Positions 2,319-23,988 of a DNA stretch of 24,000 bases are shown one piece after another. Source of the DNA: an uncultured Haemophilus sp. (GTDB taxonomy: Bacteria > Pseudomonadota > Gammaproteobacteria > Enterobacterales > Pasteurellaceae); contig CAUUKJ010000019.1 of NCBI GenBank assembly GCA_963545995.1, positions 16,097 to 40,096 of the forward strand. Direction: 5' to 3'. The translations under genes were made by a program, and so were the position numbers. The notes beneath the pieces are model-generated. The model made no database searches. It had not been told where the DNA came from and saw only the letters and a list, made by a program, of their open reading frames with translations. The first letter of the stretch is position 1; each line of letters opens with the position of its first letter.

Positions 2319-2489
2319 TGATAGAAATAAGGAGTTGATATGATTCAACTTCTTATTTTATTATTAATATTTAGTGTAAAAAATAATCATGTAGTGTTAG
2401 AGAAGATAGGAATGACAAATCCTGTCGTTTAAAAGTTTAAAAATGATGATATATTATTCTTGTCGATGTTTATGTATAAGAGCAAAATA

Positions 2490-3398
2490 ATGCAAACAAA
2501 CAAACAAACAAACAAACGTCATACTCTCGCTAAACGCTTAGGCACAATTCTTTATCGCCTAAATTGTGGCGAACGTTTAGATCTTCTGCAACTCTCCGAA
2601 GAATTTAACCTCTCTCTTCGCACCCTACAACGTGATATTAATGAACGTCTTGCTTTTCTAACTTGGGAAGAACGTGGCGACCGTTTCTATAAAATCAATC
2701 AACAACAATCTGGCTTTTTAACAGAGGAAGATATTCATCGCTTCGCTTTTTTTGCCAGCATTTCTAATTTATTTCCCAAAATTGATCGTGAGTTTTATCA
2801 GAAGAAACTTTCAGAAAGTGTTCAGGTAAAAGGTTTTCATTATGAAGATATCAGCCATAAACAAGCTGAATTTTCAGCATTGAATAATGCTATAAAACAG
2901 CATCAATTCATTAGTTTTAAATATATAAAAAAGAGCACACAAGAAACAAAATTCTATCAAATAGCTCCTTATAAATTACTCAATAAAAATGGCATTTGGT
3001 ATCTTATTGGTACAGAAAATAATAAGCAAAAAACGTTCTGTTTTACCCAAATAAGTGATCTACTGGTATTAAATGAGTCTTTTACTCCAAATAAACAATT
3101 TTTAAATGAGATAGAAGAGAGTGATAGCTTATATCACGGTAATCAGATTTCAGAAGTAATTATTAAGGTCGATTCTAAAGTGAGTCATTATTTTTTGCGT
3201 AGGAATTTATTACCTAATCAAGAAGTAATGCATAAATCAGACGATAATACTTTATTACTCCTCTGTAAGAATGTAAATGAACAAGAAATCATTCCATTAG
3301 TACAATATTGGATACCTTATGTAACAATCATTAGTCCTGTAGAGCTGCAAGCTAAAATGATTGAAAAAATTCAGAACTATATTTTTAACTTAAAGTAA
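2490..3398 (+). CDS. HTH-WYL-WCX transcriptional regulator (BrxR/CapW-like), first gene of the dynamin-like cassette
   Basis: The N-terminal wHTH is LAKRLGTILYRLNCGERLDLLQLSEEFNLSLRTLQRDINERL. The central WYL domain carries the literal motif (FYQIAPYKLLNKNGIWYLIGTENNKQKTFCFTQISDL). The C-terminal extension ends VTIISPVELQAKMIEKI, typical of the WCX dimerisation domain. I prefer the ATG at 2490 (AAGAG 9 nt upstream). The ORF track opens at a TTG at 2460, and ATGs at 2466 and 2472 are in frame. Confidence 0.8.
   Translation: MQTNKQTNKRHTLAKRLGTILYRLNCGERLDLLQLSEEFNLSLRTLQRDINERLAFLTWEERGDRFYKINQQQSGFLTEEDIHRFAFFASISNLFPKIDREFYQKKLSESVQVKGFHYEDISHKQAEFSALNNAIKQHQFISFKYIKKSTQETKFYQIAPYKLLNKNGIWYLIGTENNKQKTFCFTQISDLLVLNESFTPNKQFLNEIEESDSLYHGNQISEVIIKVDSKVSHYFLRRNLLPNQEVMHKSDDNTLLLLCKNVNEQEIIPLVQYWIPYVTIISPVELQAKMIEKIQNYIFNLK
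2493..2516 (+). repeat. Perfect tetranucleotide simple-sequence repeat (CAAA)x6 at codons 2-9 of the WYL regulator
   Basis: Direct reading gives ATG CAAACAAACAAACAAACAAACAAA CGT, which translates as QTNKQTNK. Confidence 0.95.
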
Positions 3399-3417: not shown

Positions 3418-5190
3418 ATGAACGCAAGAAAAGAGTTAGTCGATGATCTACAAAAAACGAAAGAGATTATTCTTCCTCTTAATTTAAATACTAAAACAAA
3501 AGAGGAGCAGATAAGTCTCTTAGATAAAGATATCAATAATATACAACATTTAGAGTTGATTATTCCTATTATCGGTGGTTTTAGTGTTGGGAAAAGTACG
3601 TTTATCAATCATTATTTAGGTCAAGAAAAATTGCTACCAACAGGCACACTTCCAGTAACAAAACTTGCTACTGAGTTACGTTACACATCTGGAGAAGAAT
3701 ATGCTGAGCTAATTAAAGTAGATGAGCAAGATATCGATAAAATTACAGAAATAAAAAGAATTAAACTCTCAGAATTGTCTTCTTTTGTTGCTGAAAGTGG
3801 GAACAAGGAAGAGGATTTAGACTATAACTATATTAAGTTATATATCAATAATACAAAGTTAAAAGAATTAGAACCTTTTATTATTGCGGATATGCCAGGG
3901 CTTAACTCTGGGAATAAATTACATAATCTTGCAATTGAATTTTACCTTAGAAGAGGTGTGCATTTTATTTTCTTAGAAAATGCTGAATCTGGAGAGATTA
4001 ATAATGATTCATTAAAAGAATTAGAAAATATCTTAAACAGTAATAAAGATTTCTCTTTTTGTTTAACAAGATGTGACAGAACGGATAATGAAACTTTACA
4101 AGAAGTTATAGATAAAATGGTTGATACCTTAGATGTTCAGTTAGGTGAAGATTATAAAATATATAGATCTAATTTAGAAGAAGAACCGGTCTTAGGTAGT
4201 ATCATTCGTGATATTGATCAAGATAAGATCATCAACGATATTTTCTTAGATGAGATAGATTCAAAAATCTGTAAAATCATTGAAATTCTAAAAGATAATG
4301 TTCAAGTGTTAAAAAATGATTCTGATAATATTAAATTAAGCCAAGAATATTTATTAAAACAAAAAGAACGCCTTAAAACACAGCAAAATAGAGAACTCGC
4401 TGAATTAGAGAATAAAAAATTTGATGGTGTTAATCAAATTCTAGAACAGGTTAAGGCAGAGTTACGTTTGAATAAATCACGTTTAATTAGTCGAATGGAA
4501 GGCGATCCGAAACAATTTTCTGAAGAAATAGGTTCTCTTGTTCAATCAAAATTAAGTAGCAGCATAAAAAGTTATCTGGAAAATGTAAGTTCTGAACTAA
4601 CAGAACGTTTTTCAAATATTTTGCATGACATTGCAGATAAAAACACCGATAGAATTGGTCTTGCAAATGAGACTTTAGAGCGTTTAAAAAATGATATTAA
4701 TCGCAATCTCAATAAAACATTGTTAGATATTAGAAATATAGATAGCGATATTAATGATACGGGAAGTGATAACAATATGTTAGGTTCCATTCTAAAAATG
4801 GTCATTTCATTTTTAACTGACAACCCTATTATTAAAAGTGTTGTTTCATTATTGCCTGATTTTATTAGTAATATTTTTTCAAGTTCTAGCCATAGTTCAT
4901 CAGATAGACATATTCAAGAGATGAAACGCCAAGATATGTTAGATAAAATATTTAATGAAAATATTGTACCAAAAGTTATCGGTGACATTAATGCTAAATT
5001 ACCTGAAATTCTTAATGATTTTAAATTAAAATTGATGAGCCAAATTAAAGAAATTTTTGAGAAAGAGTTGCAGCAAAAAGCAGAAGAGATAGATCGTGCT
5101 GTAAAAGAAAAAGGAAATGTAAAAAATAAAGAAAATGAGATTAGTTTATTAAGTCAAGCTATTGATTCATTGCAAGCACTAATTAAATAA
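3418..5190 (+). CDS. Dynamin-like GTPase paralogue 1 (BDLP/LeoA-like, 590 aa)
   Basis: A GGAG Shine-Dalgarno lies 7 nt upstream. The G1 P-loop is GGFSVGKST (aa 53-61), the G2-like motif is LPTGTLPVTKLAT, G3 is DMPG and G4-like is TRCD. A long K/E/N-rich helical stalk follows, with a hydrophobic paddle-like segment MLGSILKMVISFLTDNPIIKSVVSLLPDFISNIF (aa 454-487). Confidence 0.75.
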   Translation: MNARKELVDDLQKTKEIILPLNLNTKTKEEQISLLDKDINNIQHLELIIPIIGGFSVGKSTFINHYLGQEKLLPTGTLPVTKLATELRYTSGEEYAELIKVDEQDIDKITEIKRIKLSELSSFVAESGNKEEDLDYNYIKLYINNTKLKELEPFIIADMPGLNSGNKLHNLAIEFYLRRGVHFIFLENAESGEINNDSLKELENILNSNKDFSFCLTRCDRTDNETLQEVIDKMVDTLDVQLGEDYKIYRSNLEEEPVLGSIIRDIDQDKIINDIFLDEIDSKICKIIEILKDNVQVLKNDSDNIKLSQEYLLKQKERLKTQQNRELAELENKKFDGVNQILEQVKAELRLNKSRLISRMEGDPKQFSEEIGSLVQSKLSSSIKSYLENVSSELTERFSNILHDIADKNTDRIGLANETLERLKNDINRNLNKTLLDIRNIDSDINDTGSDNNMLGSILKMVISFLTDNPIIKSVVSLLPDFISNIFSSSSHSSSDRHIQEMKRQDMLDKIFNENIVPKVIGDINAKLPEILNDFKLKLMSQIKEIFEKELQQKAEEIDRAVKEKGNVKNKENEISLLSQAIDSLQALIK

Positions 5191-5216: not shown

Positions 5217-7460
5217 ATGAATATTTTAGATTTTACTAAAAAAGTAGAAAATCTTACTGATTTTGCAGAGAAGTGTAAGGTTGAACAACGCTTGCTACCA
5301 CGCAGTTATACCCCTAGTGCAGAACTCGCTAAAGAAGTAGCTAAACACGAGAAGGAAATGGCACAACAACGCATTCTAAAAATCGGTATTATTGGGCGGG
5401 TTAAAGCTGGTAAAAGCTCGTTATTAAATATGATCTTTTTTGATGGAAGAGGTGTTCTCCCTAAAGCGGTCACGCCAATGACAGCTACATTAACTTGCTT
5501 ACGTTATGGCGAAAAATATCGTGCAGAAATTGATTGTTTTAGCACAGAAGATATTGCCTTAATGAGAGAGAAAGCAAATGAAGTTAAAGAATTATTAGCA
5601 AAGAGAATAGAAGAAATAAAGAATGAATTCTTAGAAAAGAATAAAACCTCACGTAGAAAAATAGATGAATCAGAGATTCCTGAAAGAGCAGAAAGAAAAG
5701 CTAAAAGTGAATTTAAAGAGACTTCTGATTTTAGCATTTATGAGCAGGTTGAAGCATTCAAAAAAGCTGAAAAACCAAATGCGTTAATTATTAATGCTAG
5801 CTCACAAGATGATTTAATGAATAAATTAGCTGATTATGTAGGTGCAGATGGTAAATATACAGCATATACCAAATCCGTTACATTATATTTACCCGAAGAA
5901 GGATTAAAAGGTATTGAAGTTGTTGATACCCCAGGGGTAAACGATCCTGTTCAATCTCGTGAAGCAGTAACAAATAAATTTTTAGAAAACTGTCATGTTG
6001 TGTTAGCTATTCTTCCAACTCAAAATTTTGCTCAAGATGAAGAGTATAAATTTATTGATAAAACAATGAAAGCAGGTCATGTCGCTGATTGTTATCTCAT
6101 TGGAAGTCGATTTGATGGGAATTTACTTGATGCGGTTACTTCAGAGAAAATGGAAGCATTTGCATTAGTAAAAAAACAAAAAGAGGGGTTAATTGATCGA
6201 GCTAATAAAGTATTTTCAAAAATACAAAATACTAATTTTAATAGAATGGTCTTTTCATCAAGTATTGCATTTATTCTATTAAAGAATATCAATGATATAG
6301 AGGCTTGTAATAGCTATGATAAGAAACAGTGGGAAAATCTTTCATCGGCGTTTCCAGAAACATTTTCTAAAAAATCTGAAGTAGAACGATTCTTAAATGA
6401 AATCACAGGGAAGGATGAAATTCATCAGATCATTAAAGAAATAGCAGATGATAAAGATCAAAAGTTAGCGGTTTATGATCATAATTTTGAAAATCAATAT
6501 AAAAATAAGTTGAAAGACTATCTTTCAAATGTTGATAAGTATGCTGAGCAAGAAATTAATAAGCTGGAAACAGGAGATGTAAATCAGCTTCAAGCAGAAA
6601 AAGCCACGATTGAAAAAATGTCTCAGGAAATAAAATCTATTTCTAATAAGGTGTTTAAAGACTCTGTTACAAATTTTTCTTCTTCACTAAAAGAAAAATT
6701 AGTACGTAAAAATAAAGATATTTTCCGTAGTTTTAATGCTGAACAAGGCAGAAAAACCAAGACTGAAACATATACTTATATAGAAAGGGTTAAAAGAAAA
6801 CAGTCAGGGATAAGTGGAAAAATTAAAAGAGGTTTCGGATGGTTAACGAATAACTCAAGCTATGGTTATGATGATGATGAAGTTAAAAGAGAAGGTACTC
6901 GTACGATTAAAGTTTTAATTACTACAGGTGTTTGTGTGGATATTAAGGATATTCATAAAGAGATAGAAGAAAATCTTTCAATACTTGCACAGGAAAATCG
7001 TGCTGCTTGGCAAGATGATATTTGCGAGAAAATTCGTAGTGAATTAAATCGAATGAATACGAGCAAAGATGCTAAAGAAAAATTACCTCAAAAAGAGGTT
7101 ATCGATAATATGATTAAAAATATTATCTCTATGTTACCAATGATTAACTTTAAGTTACCTCCTATTCCTGAATTATTTACAAAACATGTAAGCTTAAGGG
7201 AAGAAGAAGGTAATGAATTTGTTCGTAAAGCGAAAGAATATGTTCAAACTTTAGAGCAATCCGTACATAAAAAAATAGAGAGTTATGTTCAAGAATATAG
7301 CCAGATTTTAGCTAAACAAGATGTGGGTGAAGAACTCATACAAGCATTAAAACAAGCTTTATCTAATACATTAGAGCAGTTGGCAGATAAAGAAAATAGT
7401 ATTAAAAACTTTAGAGAGATGTCTTCTAAAGCAAAAGGGTTACTAGTTGAAATCAACTAA
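5217..7460 (+). CDS. Dynamin-like GTPase paralogue 2 (747 aa)
   Basis: An AAGGA Shine-Dalgarno precedes the start. G1 is GRVKAGKSS, G2-like is LPKAVTPMTATLT, and G3 is DTPGVND after a highly charged insertion. G4-like is GSRFD. About 450 aa of predicted helical, coiled-coil-like stalk follow. Confidence 0.75.
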   Translation: MNILDFTKKVENLTDFAEKCKVEQRLLPRSYTPSAELAKEVAKHEKEMAQQRILKIGIIGRVKAGKSSLLNMIFFDGRGVLPKAVTPMTATLTCLRYGEKYRAEIDCFSTEDIALMREKANEVKELLAKRIEEIKNEFLEKNKTSRRKIDESEIPERAERKAKSEFKETSDFSIYEQVEAFKKAEKPNALIINASSQDDLMNKLADYVGADGKYTAYTKSVTLYLPEEGLKGIEVVDTPGVNDPVQSREAVTNKFLENCHVVLAILPTQNFAQDEEYKFIDKTMKAGHVADCYLIGSRFDGNLLDAVTSEKMEAFALVKKQKEGLIDRANKVFSKIQNTNFNRMVFSSSIAFILLKNINDIEACNSYDKKQWENLSSAFPETFSKKSEVERFLNEITGKDEIHQIIKEIADDKDQKLAVYDHNFENQYKNKLKDYLSNVDKYAEQEINKLETGDVNQLQAEKATIEKMSQEIKSISNKVFKDSVTNFSSSLKEKLVRKNKDIFRSFNAEQGRKTKTETYTYIERVKRKQSGISGKIKRGFGWLTNNSSYGYDDDEVKREGTRTIKVLITTGVCVDIKDIHKEIEENLSILAQENRAAWQDDICEKIRSELNRMNTSKDAKEKLPQKEVIDNMIKNIISMLPMINFKLPPIPELFTKHVSLREEEGNEFVRKAKEYVQTLEQSVHKKIESYVQEYSQILAKQDVGEELIQALKQALSNTLEQLADKENSIKNFREMSSKAKGLLVEIN

Positions 7461-7474
7461 GTATTAATATAAAC

Positions 7475-7510
7475 GTGTGCATTTTTGATATGCACACTTA
7501 TTTCTATTTT
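7475..7510 (+). terminator. Perfect 8-bp stem-loop plus T-rich tail between dynamin-like genes 2 and 3 (possible partial terminator or attenuator, or an mRNA-stabilising hairpin)
   Basis: GTGTGCAT (7475-7482), a 7-nt loop, then ATGCACAC (7490-7497), followed by TTATTTCTATTTT. Confidence 0.35.
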
Positions 7511-7523
7511 AAGAGGTATTTAC

Positions 7524-8909
7524 ATGAGTAAAAGTGAAAATCTAGATGCTATTTATGGTGGTATTGTTTTATTGGTTCCTGTAGCAGCTTATTTTTATGG
7601 ATATAGTTTCTGGGAGAGTGTTGGTATTTTCTTTTCTTTGTTTATTGTTATATTTATGATATCAAGTTTTTTCTCATATCTTTCTGGCAAGGCATCAGAG
7701 AAAAAGATGTCAGAATATATTGATAAATTGGGTATTAGAGAAAAGCTTGTTCTATCTTTAGTCAAAAAAAATCCAAATCATTCTAAATTAATTGATAAAT
7801 ATCACGATTTAGTAAATAAAGATTTTATGAATTTTTATTACAAAGTAGGTATGAAAGAACCATTGGTAATAGAGCAACTGAATCAAATTGAAACTGAGAT
7901 CAAAAAAATTGACTCTTTCCCTCAATTCTTAGGAAAAAGAATAGTTGCTGTAGGAGGTGGTTTTAGTGCAGGTAAGTCTCAATTTTTAATCAATTTATTA
8001 AAAGATGAAAAATTATCACTACCAACAAGCACAGAGCCAACAACAGCGATTCCAACTTATGTAATGCATGATGAAAAATCGGCATTGTATGGTATCGGTG
8101 AAAAAGGCAATATGATTAATTTAACCGATTTTGATCCTGAAATTGGTAAAAAACTGAATCATGACTTTATTCAAGCATTTGGGTTTAATTTAAAACATAT
8201 TATGCCTTATATGGTTATGACTAACCAACTTGCTTATGAAAATATCTGCTTTATTGATACACCAGGATATAATCCATCTTCTAGTGATGACTCTTATACA
8301 AAAGAGGATAGAAAAGAGGCGAAGAAATTTATTCAAAGTGCAGATTCACTCATTTGGCTTATTCCGATTAATACAGGTACTGTTTCTAAAAAAGATTTAG
8401 ATTTTTTAGAAGAGGTTCTATTAGAGGATCAAAAACTTTATATCGTTCTGAATAAAGCTGATCAGTTAGATTCAAATAGTTTAAACAAAGTGCTCGATGA
8501 AGTGGAAACAAGATTAGATGATAATCAGATTGATTATGAGGGGATTTCAGTTTACAGCTCAAAAGATAAAAAAGAATATTTCTTTAAAGAGAAATCTCTA
8601 AATAGTTTCCTGCTAGAGAATAATTTTAATTCATTTGAAACTAATAAGATGATTGATAATACTCAAAGATTAATTTCAGATAGACTTAATGAAATTAAAT
8701 CTAAACAAGAAGAATTTAAACATAAATTAGTTGAAATTCGTAACGTGCTTGCAGCTGATTTTAAATCGAATCATGAAGATATTGTTGATGAGTTAATTGA
8801 ACAATGCGATGATGCAGGTCATGAGGCAGAGTTAAAAGAAATTATGGATAAACTTAGAAAAACAATTAAGGATTTGTATTTATCGTACAAAGATTCAAAT
8901 AAGGAATAA
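7524..8909 (+). CDS. Membrane-anchored dynamin-like GTPase paralogue 3 (~461 aa)
   Basis: AAGAGG lies 7 nt upstream of the ATG at 7524; the track's TTG at 7485 sits inside the upstream hairpin. There are two N-terminal hydrophobic helices (IYGGIVLLVPVAAYFYGYSFW and VGIFFSLFIVIFMISSFFSYL). G1 is GGGFSAGKSQ, G2-like is LPTSTEPTTAIPT, G3 is DTPGYN and G4 is a canonical NKAD. Confidence 0.75.
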   Translation: MSKSENLDAIYGGIVLLVPVAAYFYGYSFWESVGIFFSLFIVIFMISSFFSYLSGKASEKKMSEYIDKLGIREKLVLSLVKKNPNHSKLIDKYHDLVNKDFMNFYYKVGMKEPLVIEQLNQIETEIKKIDSFPQFLGKRIVAVGGGFSAGKSQFLINLLKDEKLSLPTSTEPTTAIPTYVMHDEKSALYGIGEKGNMINLTDFDPEIGKKLNHDFIQAFGFNLKHIMPYMVMTNQLAYENICFIDTPGYNPSSSDDSYTKEDRKEAKKFIQSADSLIWLIPINTGTVSKKDLDFLEEVLLEDQKLYIVLNKADQLDSNSLNKVLDEVETRLDDNQIDYEGISVYSSKDKKEYFFKEKSLNSFLLENNFNSFETNKMIDNTQRLISDRLNEIKSKQEEFKHKLVEIRNVLAADFKSNHEDIVDELIEQCDDAGHEAELKEIMDKLRKTIKDLYLSYKDSNKE

Positions 8910-20267: not shown

Positions 20268-20353
20268 GCCAGTGTGACGAAATTGGTAGACGTAGCGGAT
20301 TCAAAATCCGCCGCCCATAAAGCGTGCCGGTTCGAGTCCGGCCACTGGCACCA
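20268..20353 (+). tRNA. leuX: tRNA-Leu (anticodon CAA), class II with a long variable arm; leuX equivalent
   Basis: The sequence is GCCAGTGTGACGAAATTGGTAGACGTAGCGGATTCAAAATCCGCCGCCCATAAAGCGTGCCGGTTCGAGTCCGGCCACTGGCACCA. The acceptor stem GCCAGTG/CACTGGC pairs, the anticodon loop is TTCAAAA and CCA is encoded. It is similar to E. coli tRNA-Leu(CAA). Confidence 0.95.
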
Positions 20354-20671: not shown

Positions 20672-20869
20672 ATGGTGATTTCAATGCTACAGCCCGTTCG
20701 TGCTTTTCCATTGAATGGGATTTTAAGCCTAAATATGCAAATCAAAAGCCAACAAAAGTGCGTGCCAGAATTAAGCCAAGCAGATAAAACCTTGTTTGCT
20801 AACATTGAAGCAAGTGCAAAAAAAATGACACAGCAAGAATTGATGGCAATGATGGGGCTTGTTCATTAA
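20672..20869 (+). CDS. Putative antitoxin partner of the YafO-like toxin (65 aa, family not recognised)
   Basis: It has a strong Shine-Dalgarno. Its stop TAA overlaps the toxin ATG (TAATG), which implies translational coupling. Position and size fit a type II antitoxin, but I do not recognise the sequence itself. Confidence 0.5.
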   Translation: MVISMLQPVRAFPLNGILSLNMQIKSQQKCVPELSQADKTLFANIEASAKKMTQQELMAMMGLVH

Positions 20870-21291
20870 TGAATGTCAGCCACACCCAACTATTTGAACA
20901 ATATGCACAAGTATCAAACATTGATCTTGTGCTTTTTGTTAAGCGTTTCAAAGAGTGGAAACAAGCAGGCGAAGAAAGCAGTTATTTCTTCGGCAAAGAC
21001 GGTTTTTATAGCCCAATTATGCACGGTTTACGCCACGTGCATATTGTACCTGTACTAAGCGTGCTAGATAAGCAACGTTGGGATAAGCATTGGCAAACAG
21101 GACAAAGACGCACAAGTGATACTTGCCTTGTTTATGTGGAAGATAATCAAGATTTTTTACTGGTAAGCATTTTGCCCGAACCGCTTGCCCATAAAATTGC
21201 CCGTCAAGAAACAGCAGATGATCGCCTAATTATGCAAAGGTTTTACCATATCGCAGAACAATTCTATTTTTATCGTAAAATCGTGGCATAA
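20869..21291 (+). CDS. yafO: YafO-family type II toxin (ribosome-dependent mRNA interferase family)
   Basis: The 140-aa ORF aligns by eye with my memory of E. coli YafO. FFGKDGFYS matches IFGRDALYD, LRHVHIV matches VAHIHL, RRTSDTCLVYVED matches SRTNDEAHLVYCQ, and LLVSILPEPLAHKIAR matches LLIAILKPEPHKLAR. Confidence 0.7.
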   Translation: MNVSHTQLFEQYAQVSNIDLVLFVKRFKEWKQAGEESSYFFGKDGFYSPIMHGLRHVHIVPVLSVLDKQRWDKHWQTGQRRTSDTCLVYVEDNQDFLLVSILPEPLAHKIARQETADDRLIMQRFYHIAEQFYFYRKIVA

Positions 21292-21626: not shown

Positions 21627-22215
21627 CCCCCTCTCTCTGCCAAAATTGCCTTCGCAATTTCGGCTGTCTCTCTCCCTCGAGGGGAGATAGTGATTGCTTC
21701 TTCGATTTAGCATACCTCACAAAAACAAAACCTTCGCTCCTTGGGAGAGAGTGATTTTTCTCCGATTTTACACACCCTACAAAAAACAAAACCCTCGCCC
21801 CTTGAGGGAGAGGGATAATTTCAATTCGTTCAGAATTGAAATTCGGGAGAGGGGTAAGCGGTCAAATCTGACCGCTTATTTACAAAATTTATATCGCAGC
21901 CCCCTCTCTCTGCCAAAATTGCCTTCGCAATTTCGGCTGTCTCTCTCCCTCAAGGGGAGAGAGTGATTTTTCTCTCCGATTTTACGCACCTTACAAAAAA
22001 ACTTCGCTCCTTGTGGGAGAGAGTGATTTTTTCTCCGATTTAGTATATCCCACAAAAACAAAACCCTCGCCCCTTGAGGGAGAGGGATAATTTCAATTCG
22101 TTTAGAATTGAAATTCGGGAGAGGGGAAAGCGGTCAAATTTGACCGCTCATTTACAAAATTAATATCGCAGCCCTCTCTCTGCCAAAATTGCCTTACGCA
22201 ATTTCCGTTGCTTTA
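21627..22215. repeat. Tandem repeat, ~272-bp unit x ~2.2 copies, itself built of ~60-bp hairpin modules (REP/MITE-like)
   Basis: CCCCCTCTCTCTGCCAAAATTGCCTTCGCAATTTCGGCTGTCTCTCTCCCTC starts at both 21627 and 21900, with a shorter third start at 22172. The unit ends are near-identical and the middles are more diverged. Internal hairpins include CTCTCCCTCAAGGGGAGAG, CCCTCGCCCCTTGAGGGAGAGGG, AATTTCAATTC..GAATTGAAATT and the USS dyad AAGCGGTCAAATCTGACCGCTT. Confidence 0.85.
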
Positions 22216-23023: not shown

Positions 23024-23467
23024 CTAATATTCTAGCGGAGCTACATAATTATTTAGCTGTTCAAGCTTAGGTTTACCTAAATTAAAAAATTGTGTTTCAC
23101 TTTTATTAATAAGTGCTGGAATAAGGCTGTCAATTCTTTCGTGTGCATCAGGATGAATAATATCAAGAATGCGTACATATTCAGGACAAAGCCAGTGACG
23201 AATAAAAACAACAAAATTATTAGATGTTCTAGACTGACCTTTAGGTTTTCTCCAAGATACAGAGTTTAATTCTTTCTCTGATAGAGCAACATGTAGCTTA
23301 GAAAGTTTATATTCTTTTGCTGAAGGATTATTATCTAATCCACTATAATGACCAAGAAAATTTGGATATATTTCTGCACCGCTTTCTAAAACAAGGGCAA
23401 CACCTTTAGCAATTTTATCAATATGAGGGAAATCAACTAAATCATCGCTTACAGAAACATAAATCAT
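23024..23467 (-). CDS. Second YafO-like protein (putative toxin)
   Basis: It shares the YafO pattern with ORF 20869-21291: KLSKLHVAL, QSRTSNNFVVFI and VRILDIIHPDAHERI. The ATG at 23467 overlaps the upstream stop as ATGA. The track's start at 23479 is 4 codons further upstream. Confidence 0.5.
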   Translation of the reverse strand: MIYVSVSDDLVDFPHIDKIAKGVALVLESGAEIYPNFLGHYSGLDNNPSAKEYKLSKLHVALSEKELNSVSWRKPKGQSRTSNNFVVFIRHWLCPEYVRILDIIHPDAHERIDSLIPALINKSETQFFNLGKPKLEQLNNYVAPLEY

Positions 23468-23988
23468 CTTATAGTACATTCCTTCGCTGCTTGGTTGATT
23501 GCAGTAAGATCAACGGCAGACATTTCTAAATCCCCGACATTACTTACTTTTACTAATCCACTTTTTTCCTTAACTCTAGCAAGAGAATAATCCAATTCCA
23601 CAATGCTATTCGTATAAGCACGATATTGTTTGCTAAATTCAGACATAATACGAGCTTCGTGTTTATCTACAAGAATGGTTGAATTCAGGTCTAATAAAGT
23701 ACGAATTGCCATTAAAATATCAAATTGTTCTGGGCTAATTTTGAATTTGTCTTGGATTAAGCTTGCATTTAATTGATCAATTTTTTGAGAAAGTTGTAAT
23801 ACTTTATTAAATAATTCTCGAACTGAAACATCATCAGCCTTATTTGCTAATGATTGCATCATACTTACAGATTCACGCACGCTATTAAGCTGTTCAGTAT
23901 TATGTTGTTTTGCATAAGCGTTGCCTGTAATCGCAGAGAGTAGACTGGTTGCCACCGTAATTACTTTAGTTGTAGCTGTTTTTTTCAT
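23464..23988 (-). CDS. Hypothetical helical protein with a predicted Sec signal peptide, translationally coupled to the YafO-like gene
   Basis: MKKTATTKVITVATSLLSAITGNAYA|KQ has n-, h- and c-regions with an AxA cleavage site. The remainder is Q/L/S-rich and helical in appearance. I do not recognise a family. Confidence 0.5.
   Translation of the reverse strand: MKKTATTKVITVATSLLSAITGNAYAKQHNTEQLNSVRESVSMMQSLANKADDVSVRELFNKVLQLSQKIDQLNASLIQDKFKISPEQFDILMAIRTLLDLNSTILVDKHEARIMSEFSKQYRAYTNSIVELDYSLARVKEKSGLVKVSNVGDLEMSAVDLTAINQAAKECTIR

Follow-up and report, generated by a model that had tools for sequence, protein, structure and literature searches.

Why should the gene for a transcriptional regulator carry, directly behind its start codon, a perfect tandem repeat in which the gain or loss of a single unit breaks the reading frame? 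This question is raised by a 24,000-nt stretch of DNA from an uncultured Haemophilus sp. (contig CAUUKJ010000019.1; hereafter the window, to whose full length unlabelled coordinates refer). In it, six CAAA units follow the ATG of a gene for a regulator with winged helix-turn-helix (wHTH), WYL and WCX parts, upstream of three genes for dynamin-like GTPases. The two features at issue are as follows.

2493..2516, + strand: (CAAA)6 tract, codons 2-9 (QTNKQTNK) of the regulator, the proposed hypermutable switch
2490..3398, + strand: open reading frame (ORF) of the wHTH-WYL-WCX transcriptional regulator, 302 amino acids with six units, Pfam WYL

A reading of the sequence without database searches (hereafter the sequence-only reading) had taken the tract for an ON/OFF switch of regulator translation. 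Our analysis supports that proposal through natural variation in tract length, intact OFF alleles, purifying selection and simple-sequence repeats (SSRs) at orthologues elsewhere. We consider it likely, from comparison of sequences, that (CAAA)n switches regulator translation ON and OFF by slipped-strand changes, as at a contingency locus, and that the regulator in turn controls the GTPase operon.

The CAAA tract, its reading frame and its natural variation

The presence of the tract after the regulator start codon is confirmed. The window reads ...AAGAGCAAAATA ATG (CAAA)6 CGT CAT ACT CTC GCT AAA CGC..., with six perfect units immediately 3' of the ATG at 2490-2492, as the sequence-only reading had it. 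Tandem Repeats Finder also returned the tract, with a period of 4, 6.2 copies and 100% matches, as the sole period-4 array in 24 kb. The 24-mer of the tract, with up to two mismatches allowed, occurred in 0 of 100 dinucleotide-preserving shuffles, and the six-unit repeat is thus longer than chance would give; for tetranucleotide repeats in H. influenzae Rd, three units are the maximum expected (PMC2651432). Rfam and tRNA scans revealed nothing relevant close to the tract.

We rebuilt the regulator gene in silico with 2-12 CAAA units and translated each version. With the upstream sequence of the window lineage, the ORF was open solely with 3n units (3, 6, 9 or 12), giving proteins of 298-310 amino acids, and translation ended after 11-23 codons with 3n+1 or 3n-1 units. 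Five units gave MQTNKQTNVILSLNA and seven units gave MQTNKQTNKQTSYSR, with a stop after 15 codons in either case, exactly as had been translated by hand in the sequence-only reading. The earliest in-frame ATG, GTG or TTG 3' of the tract is the TTG at 2880, which is codon 131 and lies past the helix-turn-helix (HTH); this bears out the earlier statement that no in-frame Met before the HTH could rescue translation, and a translation start downstream of the tract was rejected on this ground. Upstream, ATG 2466, ATG 2472 and TTG 2460 share the frame of ATG 2490; ATG 2443 and ATG 2446 are out of frame and reach a stop before the tract. A change of one unit is therefore a frameshift in the 5' coding region without a rescue start, and since there is no restart codon before codon 131, no DNA-binding protein would be possible from the OFF lengths.

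OFF alleles leave about 880 nt untranslated, which raises the alternative that the tract works mainly via the downstream genes, either by Rho-dependent polarity on the GTPase operon, as the sequence-only reading had also suggested, or by in-frame lengths that tune translation initiation. Such an effect would be helped by the gene order, as the first GTPase gene starts 20 nt past the regulator stop codon and sequence prediction detected neither a terminator nor a promoter between the two. However, polarity would add to the loss of the regulator and not replace it, and the upstream intergenic SSRs of other genera described below cannot act through polarity; we regard this as a very improbable account of the tract.

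Variation in tract length was found within the window lineage. A protein search returned a 172-amino-acid "remnant," 99% identical to the C-terminal part of the regulator, on a contig (L001; L numbers are our labels for the compared loci) that carries the same locus with five CAAA units and is thus OFF. Aligned over 9398 nucleotides, L001 and the window show a single mismatch and one 4-nt gap, the latter being a CAAA unit. A third locus, L101, has six units and two single-nucleotide polymorphisms (SNPs) relative to the window, and a metagenome scan with the flank pattern returned one locus. The tract is therefore polymorphic in length (five or six units) within conserved flanks (1-2 SNPs). A repeat count in other strains had been proposed as a check on the switch; the count is not invariant, here or in the sister lineage, where it ranges from 3 to 12.

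The nearest other lineage, whose named members are Haemophilus parahaemolyticus, encodes a regulator that is 84% identical to that of the window and has the same repeat in the same place, in another chromosomal context (after lpxK). We compared 30 loci of this sister lineage, most of which are metagenome assemblies. The tract comprised 3, 5, 6, 7, 9 or 12 units, in addition to one interrupted 7+6 array, and its flanks were constant except in L025 (ATGAAGG before the tract) and L026 (another upstream region). The tract is preceded in this lineage by ATGaATG, a pair of start codons lying in different frames. The proximal ATG is in frame with tracts of 3n+2 units and the distal ATG with tracts of 3n+1, and the gene is OFF solely at 3n. 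A start in the third frame was rejected, as that frame has a TGA five codons before the tract and no start codon after it.

The loci retrieved via truncated gene calls (n = 25) all had 3, 6, 9 or 12 units, and the full-length calls had 5 or 7, because the two-ATG design leaves only 3n OFF; this agreement between frame and gene call follows from the way in which the loci were retrieved and is no independent result. It nevertheless bears, with that reservation, on whether the differences in unit number are assembly or sequencing artefacts, a concern that stems from the short-read metagenome origin of most loci. The frame classes match the gene calls exactly, the tracts (12-48 nt) are below read length, and the flanks, apart from those of L025 and L026, do not differ among 30 independent assemblies drawn from several projects, all of which makes an artefact extremely improbable.

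The sequence behind the tract has been kept intact. In 26 of 26 OFF alleles, the remaining 289 codons after the tract were fully open. Six distinct 867-nt coding alleles were present in the sister lineage; one identical allele was found with 5, 6, 7, 9 and 12 units, and another was found with 3, 6 and 9 units and with the interrupted 7+6 array. The ratio of nonsynonymous to synonymous substitution rates (dN/dS) was 0.06-0.08 when the window was compared with the sister lineage and 0.09-0.31 when sister alleles were compared with one another, a substitution pattern indicating that the regulator gene is under purifying selection and is maintained. The occurrence of many lengths on identical alleles, the open OFF alleles and the low dN/dS together indicate that the tract changes far faster than the adjacent sequence and does so in both directions across the frames.

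By contig count, the sister cluster contained about 59 OFF-type fragments versus about 10 ON-type proteins, numbers that are to be read in the light of related samples and consensus assembly. This excess reverses the 1:2 ratio expected from the frames alone, which suggests selection for OFF in the sampled niche. The same excess could also arise if the tract were a mere mutational hotspot in a dispensable N-terminal tail and the OFF alleles were ordinary loss-of-function variants under relaxed selection. The shortness of a six-unit tract, the disorder of the tail in the structural model (described below), which probably renders in-frame length changes neutral, and a split GTPase 1 gene in some three-unit strains, which hints at decay of the whole locus, point the same way. 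Nevertheless, this explanation is hard to reconcile with 26 of 26 OFF alleles lacking a second lesion in 289 codons, with a dN/dS of 0.06-0.31, with ON and OFF lengths on the same identical coding allele, with the two-ATG, two-frame arrangement of the sister lineage, or with the unrelated SSR types, more than 70-fold enriched, at the same gene end in several genera. We consider it unlikely.

Three further features were observed in the sister lineage. At three loci with only 3 units (L004 2552-4320, L009 1421-3189 and L011 1190-2958), GTPase 1 is split into ORFs of 208 and 372 amino acids; this may represent cassette decay where the switch became short. At L026 (400-477), the whole upstream region has been exchanged as far as the tract itself, giving ATGA(CAAA)7, and the conserved box described below is absent. 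At L025 (1501-1580), the proximal ATG is mutated to ATGAAGG, and the array reads (CAAA)7 C (CAAA)6 CAGA CAAA.

Simple-sequence repeats at orthologues in other genera

A profile scan with the regulator, using one genome per species, yielded 69 loci, mostly from Pasteurellaceae, with some from Moraxellaceae and Neisseriaceae and few from other groups; the best match was 74% identical to the window regulator. The closer homologues (72-74% identity) start with MKK..QLAQRL and have no repeat. In more distant homologues, we found long SSRs of other types within or just upstream of the 5' end of the gene. Those with mapped positions are as follows.

L068 6992-7031: (ACAA)10 in Pasteurella sp. PK-2025, in frame
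L057 7005-7015 and L059 6995-7006: poly-G tracts of 11 and 12 nt in Gallibacterium
L053 6745-6856, L054 6773-6856 and L071 6661-6856: CGAATGT arrays in Lonepinella, intergenic
L069 6755-6794, L027 6706-6765 and L070 6664-6713: TCAA and CAAAA arrays, intergenic

In Pasteurella sp. PK-2025, the gene begins ATG CAA CAG ATC (ACAA)10; a homologue search seeded with this regulator found no close relatives, the best match being 74% identical and starting with MQPNTNKTK. Gallibacterium melopsittaci and G. trehalosifermentans carry G11 and G12 within codons 22-26; as assembled, both genes are out of frame. A related contig has an interrupted, in-frame GGGAGGGGGG (L102 725-730). About 140 nt before the ATG, CGAATGT is repeated 16, 12 and 28 times in three Lonepinella species. 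An upstream ATG in Rodentibacter rarus and in the type strain of H. parahaemolyticus is immediately followed by (TCAA)10-15; this ATG belongs to a possible upstream ORF of 63-77 amino acids. In Stenoxybacter, (CAAAA)10 lies upstream of the regulator. The intergenic CGAATGT, CAAAA and TCAA arrays are all positioned upstream of the conserved box described below.

Counted with fixed thresholds, long SSRs numbered 9 in 27 kb of 5' regions versus 4 in 900 kb of flanks, a more than 70-fold enrichment (Poisson P about 1e-14), and two of the four flank SSRs were also just upstream of the regulator. These distributions suggest that different SSR types arose at the same gene end in several genera, that is, by convergence.

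The regulator, its putative operator and the exchangeable cargo

The direction in which such a switch would act depends on the class of the regulator. In the ORF at 2490-3398, Pfam recognises a WYL domain (9.5e-11); the match to WCX, at 21.6 bits, is slightly below the cut-off of 23.9. An AlphaFold model of the protein (mean predicted local distance difference test score, pLDDT, of 78) consists of a winged HTH, a helical linker, and WYL and WCX parts; the first ten residues, which include the repeat-encoded QTNKQTNK, have a pLDDT below 50 and are disordered, lying before helix 1. In a Foldseek search of the PDB with this model, DriD was the best match (6.5e-12), followed by PafBC (4e-10), both at probability 1.00; BrxR (1.9e-6, rank 16) and CapW (2.6e-6) scored lower. 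A sequence profile search of PDB chains with the regulator reached only PafBC-type chains and found neither BrxR nor CapW at E <= 0.01. The regulator and its orthologues do head diverse, probably defensive, cargo in the manner of BrxR and CapW, but the nearest relatives are probably not these proteins, as DriD and PafBC score better; membership of the BrxR/CapW class as the best fit was rejected on the weaker fold matches and the missing PDB profile match.

The region upstream of the gene contains the following predicted elements.

2413..2427, no strand: palindromic box TGACA-AATCC-TGTCG, putative regulator operator, from a motif scan
2428..2455, + strand: sigma-70-like -35 (TTTAAA) and extended -10 (TG-n-TATATT), a weak consensus match
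2478..2482, + strand: AAGAG Shine-Dalgarno-like element, 7 nt before ATG 2490, read from the sequence
2324..2359, + strand: terminator-like hairpin and T-run after ygfZ, a sequence prediction

The box is the single GWCA-N5-TGWC site in the 24-kb window. Activators of the DdaA/DriD type have CGWCA-N5-TGWCG (DdaA) or CGAC-N7-GTCG (DriD) in the promoters that they regulate, and the window box agrees with the DdaA motif at 9 of 10 specified bases. In 41 of the 69 species loci, a palindrome with the consensus aCGACACAACCTGTCGt precedes the regulator start by 40-180 nt, versus a background of 0.011 sites per 250 nt; across orthologues, this box is CGACA-N5-TGWCG and fits the published DdaA motif. 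The predicted sites in the window and in these orthologous loci, together with the wHTH-WYL-WCX architecture (WCX just under its cut-off), are thus of the DdaA/DriD type. The predicted promoter directly after the box would centre the box near -42, a placement that is compatible with activation yet is no evidence for it. The hairpin would insulate the regulator operon from upstream transcription. A 30-codon ORF, called in L001 at the position equivalent to 2340-2432, is unlikely to be a gene; it overlaps both the putative operator and the hairpin.

On these grounds we lean slightly towards an autoregulated DdaA/DriD-like activator and away from a BrxR-like repressor. The sequence-only reading had proposed that, if the regulator is a repressor like BrxR and CapW, slippage would derepress the operon; that analogy was probably the wrong model, as DriD and PafBC folds fit better and the box fits the DdaA motif, and the direction of derepression is accordingly doubtful. 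If the regulator is an activator, OFF may mean "not inducible" rather than "derepressed."

Behind the regulator lie three GTPase genes.

3418..5190, + strand: dynamin-like GTPase 1, 590 amino acids, Dynamin_N 3.1e-16, with its own GGAG
5217..7460, + strand: dynamin-like GTPase 2, 747 amino acids, Dynamin_N 3.4e-19
7485..8909, + strand: dynamin-like GTPase 3, 474 amino acids, Dynamin_N 8.7e-15, with a partial LeoBC match (2.1e-7)

The defence setting proposed in the sequence-only reading stands in part: the Dynamin_N domains of the three ORFs are clear, but the LeoA and LeoBC (Eleos) models are only weakly matched (PADLOC LeoA at 2.1e-4 over 67 residues and LeoBC at 2.1e-7 over 96 residues). 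No exact-protein match was found for the window GTPase 1. The cassette is flanked by housekeeping genes, with yicC and ygfZ upstream and ndh, sprT and others downstream, and the label "defence system" is taken from its context.

That context is one of variable cargo. The regulator is conserved at 45-84% identity while the genes behind it differ between species. Within the sister lineage, the same 84% regulator allele is followed by two unrelated GTPase 1 types, 34% and 56% identical to window GTPase 1, which divide the loci into L002-L011 with L025 on the one side and L012-L024 on the other, and the last eight residues of the regulator switch along with them; cargo thus appears to have been exchanged behind a constant regulator. 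The orthologue in H. paraphrohaemolyticus is followed by an Eleos-like LeoBC/LeoA pair (LeoA 5.6e-30), a better match than those of the window. PDC-M09A/B genes follow the orthologue in Gallibacterium, Actinobacillus, Lonepinella and an H. parahaemolyticus metagenome-assembled genome, the last of which also has a Bunzi-like gene (BnzB), and in a Moraxella the genes behind the orthologue encode a ZorA-like protein and an IetA-like ATPase. Defence islands typically combine exchangeable cargo with a regulator that stays the same, and by this analogy the cargo is probably anti-phage.

We propose the following mechanism. Slipped-strand mispairing is known to alter unit number at tetranucleotide SSRs, and here it would add or remove CAAA units. 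In silico, 3n units permit translation of the window regulator and other lengths abolish it. The regulator would bind the TGACA-N5-TGTCG box at 2413-2427 before its own promoter and from there control an operon comprising its own gene and the three GTPase genes. Since the box and the fold resemble those of the single-stranded DNA (ssDNA)-sensing activators DdaA and DriD, OFF cells would most likely be unable to induce the GTPase operon; under a repressor model, OFF cells would express it constitutively. The roughly 880 untranslated nucleotides could add Rho-dependent polarity. The outcome would be a population mixed for probably anti-phage cargo.

Several observations weigh against this reading. 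Only three loci of the window lineage were compared, with 6, 6 and 5 units, and six units are short for a fast tetranucleotide switch. Most of the comparative loci are metagenome assemblies, which give a consensus, and the excess of OFF over ON types (about 59 versus about 10) could reflect relaxed selection on the regulator. As for activation, the call between activator and repressor is drawn from one motif and one fold match; the regulator model has a predicted template modelling score (pTM) of 0.40, and the Foldseek TM-scores are about 0.25. The promoter hexamers match at 9 of 12 positions, and nine such sites were found versus 7.5 expected in shuffles. The Eleos matches of the window GTPases are marginal, the NCBIfam LeoA/HP0731 model giving 22.5 bits versus a cut-off of 325.

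A wider generalization can be offered only tentatively, and we would put it at somewhat less than an even chance: Pasteurellaceae and neighbouring groups may have repeatedly placed a DdaA-like WYL regulator that heads exchangeable defence cassettes under SSR control, using different repeat types each time (CAAA/ACAA and poly-G tracts within the gene, and heptamer, TCAA and CAAAA arrays before it), such that inducible anti-phage immunity would be a bet-hedged, phase-variable trait governed through the regulator, with regulator-OFF predominant in the human oral niche.

Apart from the switch, the window contains a 272-bp unit in 2.1 tandem copies (89% matches) with an inner 61-bp repeat at 21627-22205, and a copy that is 85-91% identical precedes the rph/yicC region elsewhere in that genome lineage (L001 2666-2842); the unit is probably a dispersed intergenic repeat element. 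It is flanked by two ORFs with YafO-type toxin domains, at 20869-21291 (+ strand) and 23024-23479 (- strand), and this region adjoins a tRNA-Leu gene at 20268-20353. The YafO-type ORFs, the repeat and the tRNA gene may constitute a small integration hotspot.

Comparison with known systems

Surface structures and restriction-modification methyltransferases are well-known targets of phase variation, and phase-variable transcription factors exist in other bacteria. Our literature searches, which paired phase variation with WYL, BrxR, H. parahaemolyticus, defence regulators or dynamin-like systems, returned no description of an SSR switch within a WYL regulator that heads defence cassettes. The locus would be an SSR contingency locus of a known type whose target class is unreported, and the convergent pattern is notable. 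If our interpretation is correct, some host-adapted bacteria randomise whether a defence operon is regulable, not whether its effectors exist, which would be relevant to autoimmunity, to what immunity costs and, in naturally competent species, to DNA uptake. A difference of 4 nt separates ON from OFF alleles, a putative operator is defined, and several genera offer independent replicates of the design.

The cargo resembles LeoABC of enterotoxigenic Escherichia coli and the Eleos system in its three clustered dynamin-like GTPase genes and its weak PADLOC LeoA and LeoBC matches. These matches are partial and far under the NCBIfam cut-off (22.5 versus 325 bits). BrxR and CapW, the WYL repressors that head BREX (bacteriophage exclusion), CBASS and other defence islands, share the domain architecture of the regulator, and their genes likewise immediately precede diverse defence cargo in the same orientation. 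However, the model matches their folds less well than that of DriD, by about 5 orders of magnitude, and the operator is, as predicted from sequence, of the DdaA/DriD type.

The ssDNA-activated WYL activators DdaA (Moraxellaceae) and DriD (Caulobacter) have the same wHTH-WYL-WCX architecture, DriD is the best fold match, and the conserved upstream palindrome CGACA-N5-TGWCG fits the CGWCA-N5-TGWCG of DdaA. In Moraxellaceae, the WYL protein DdaA activates both DNA-damage and anti-phage genes (PMC12392091), and its H. influenzae homologue bound the CGWCA-N5-TGWCG motif in an electrophoretic mobility shift assay (PMC12392091 and preprint). The present regulator differs from both in that it heads a variable cargo cassette and not, so far as is visible, a genome-wide damage regulon, and in its SSR, which the cited literature does not report for DdaA or DriD.

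The tract itself is most similar to the tetranucleotide contingency loci of H. influenzae (CAAT in lic1A and lic2A, AGTC in mod, CCAA in hgp and CAAA in YadA-domain genes), in which a perfect array is likewise found within the ORF, close to its 5' end, a unit change shifts the frame, and the repeat-encoded peptide is hydrophilic and N-terminal. In lic1A, alternative ATGs lie in different frames, as in the sister lineage here. The present target, unlike those of the H. influenzae loci, is a cytoplasmic transcription factor and not a surface structure, lipooligosaccharide enzyme or methyltransferase, and the tract is short (6 units here and 3-12 in relatives). CAAA is among the tetranucleotide SSRs found in H. 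influenzae ORFs, and about 1e-4 unit changes occur per generation (PMC2651432).

The phase-variable phage-defence genes, namely type III mod, type I hsd and pglX of Streptomyces Pgl/BREX (the phase variation of PglX is cited in PMC9122589), offer the closest parallel in function, as in each case an SSR would impose a stochastic ON/OFF state on a defence function. In those systems, the SSR resides in the effector or methyltransferase gene, whereas at the present locus it resides in a dedicated regulator and the effector genes are left intact.

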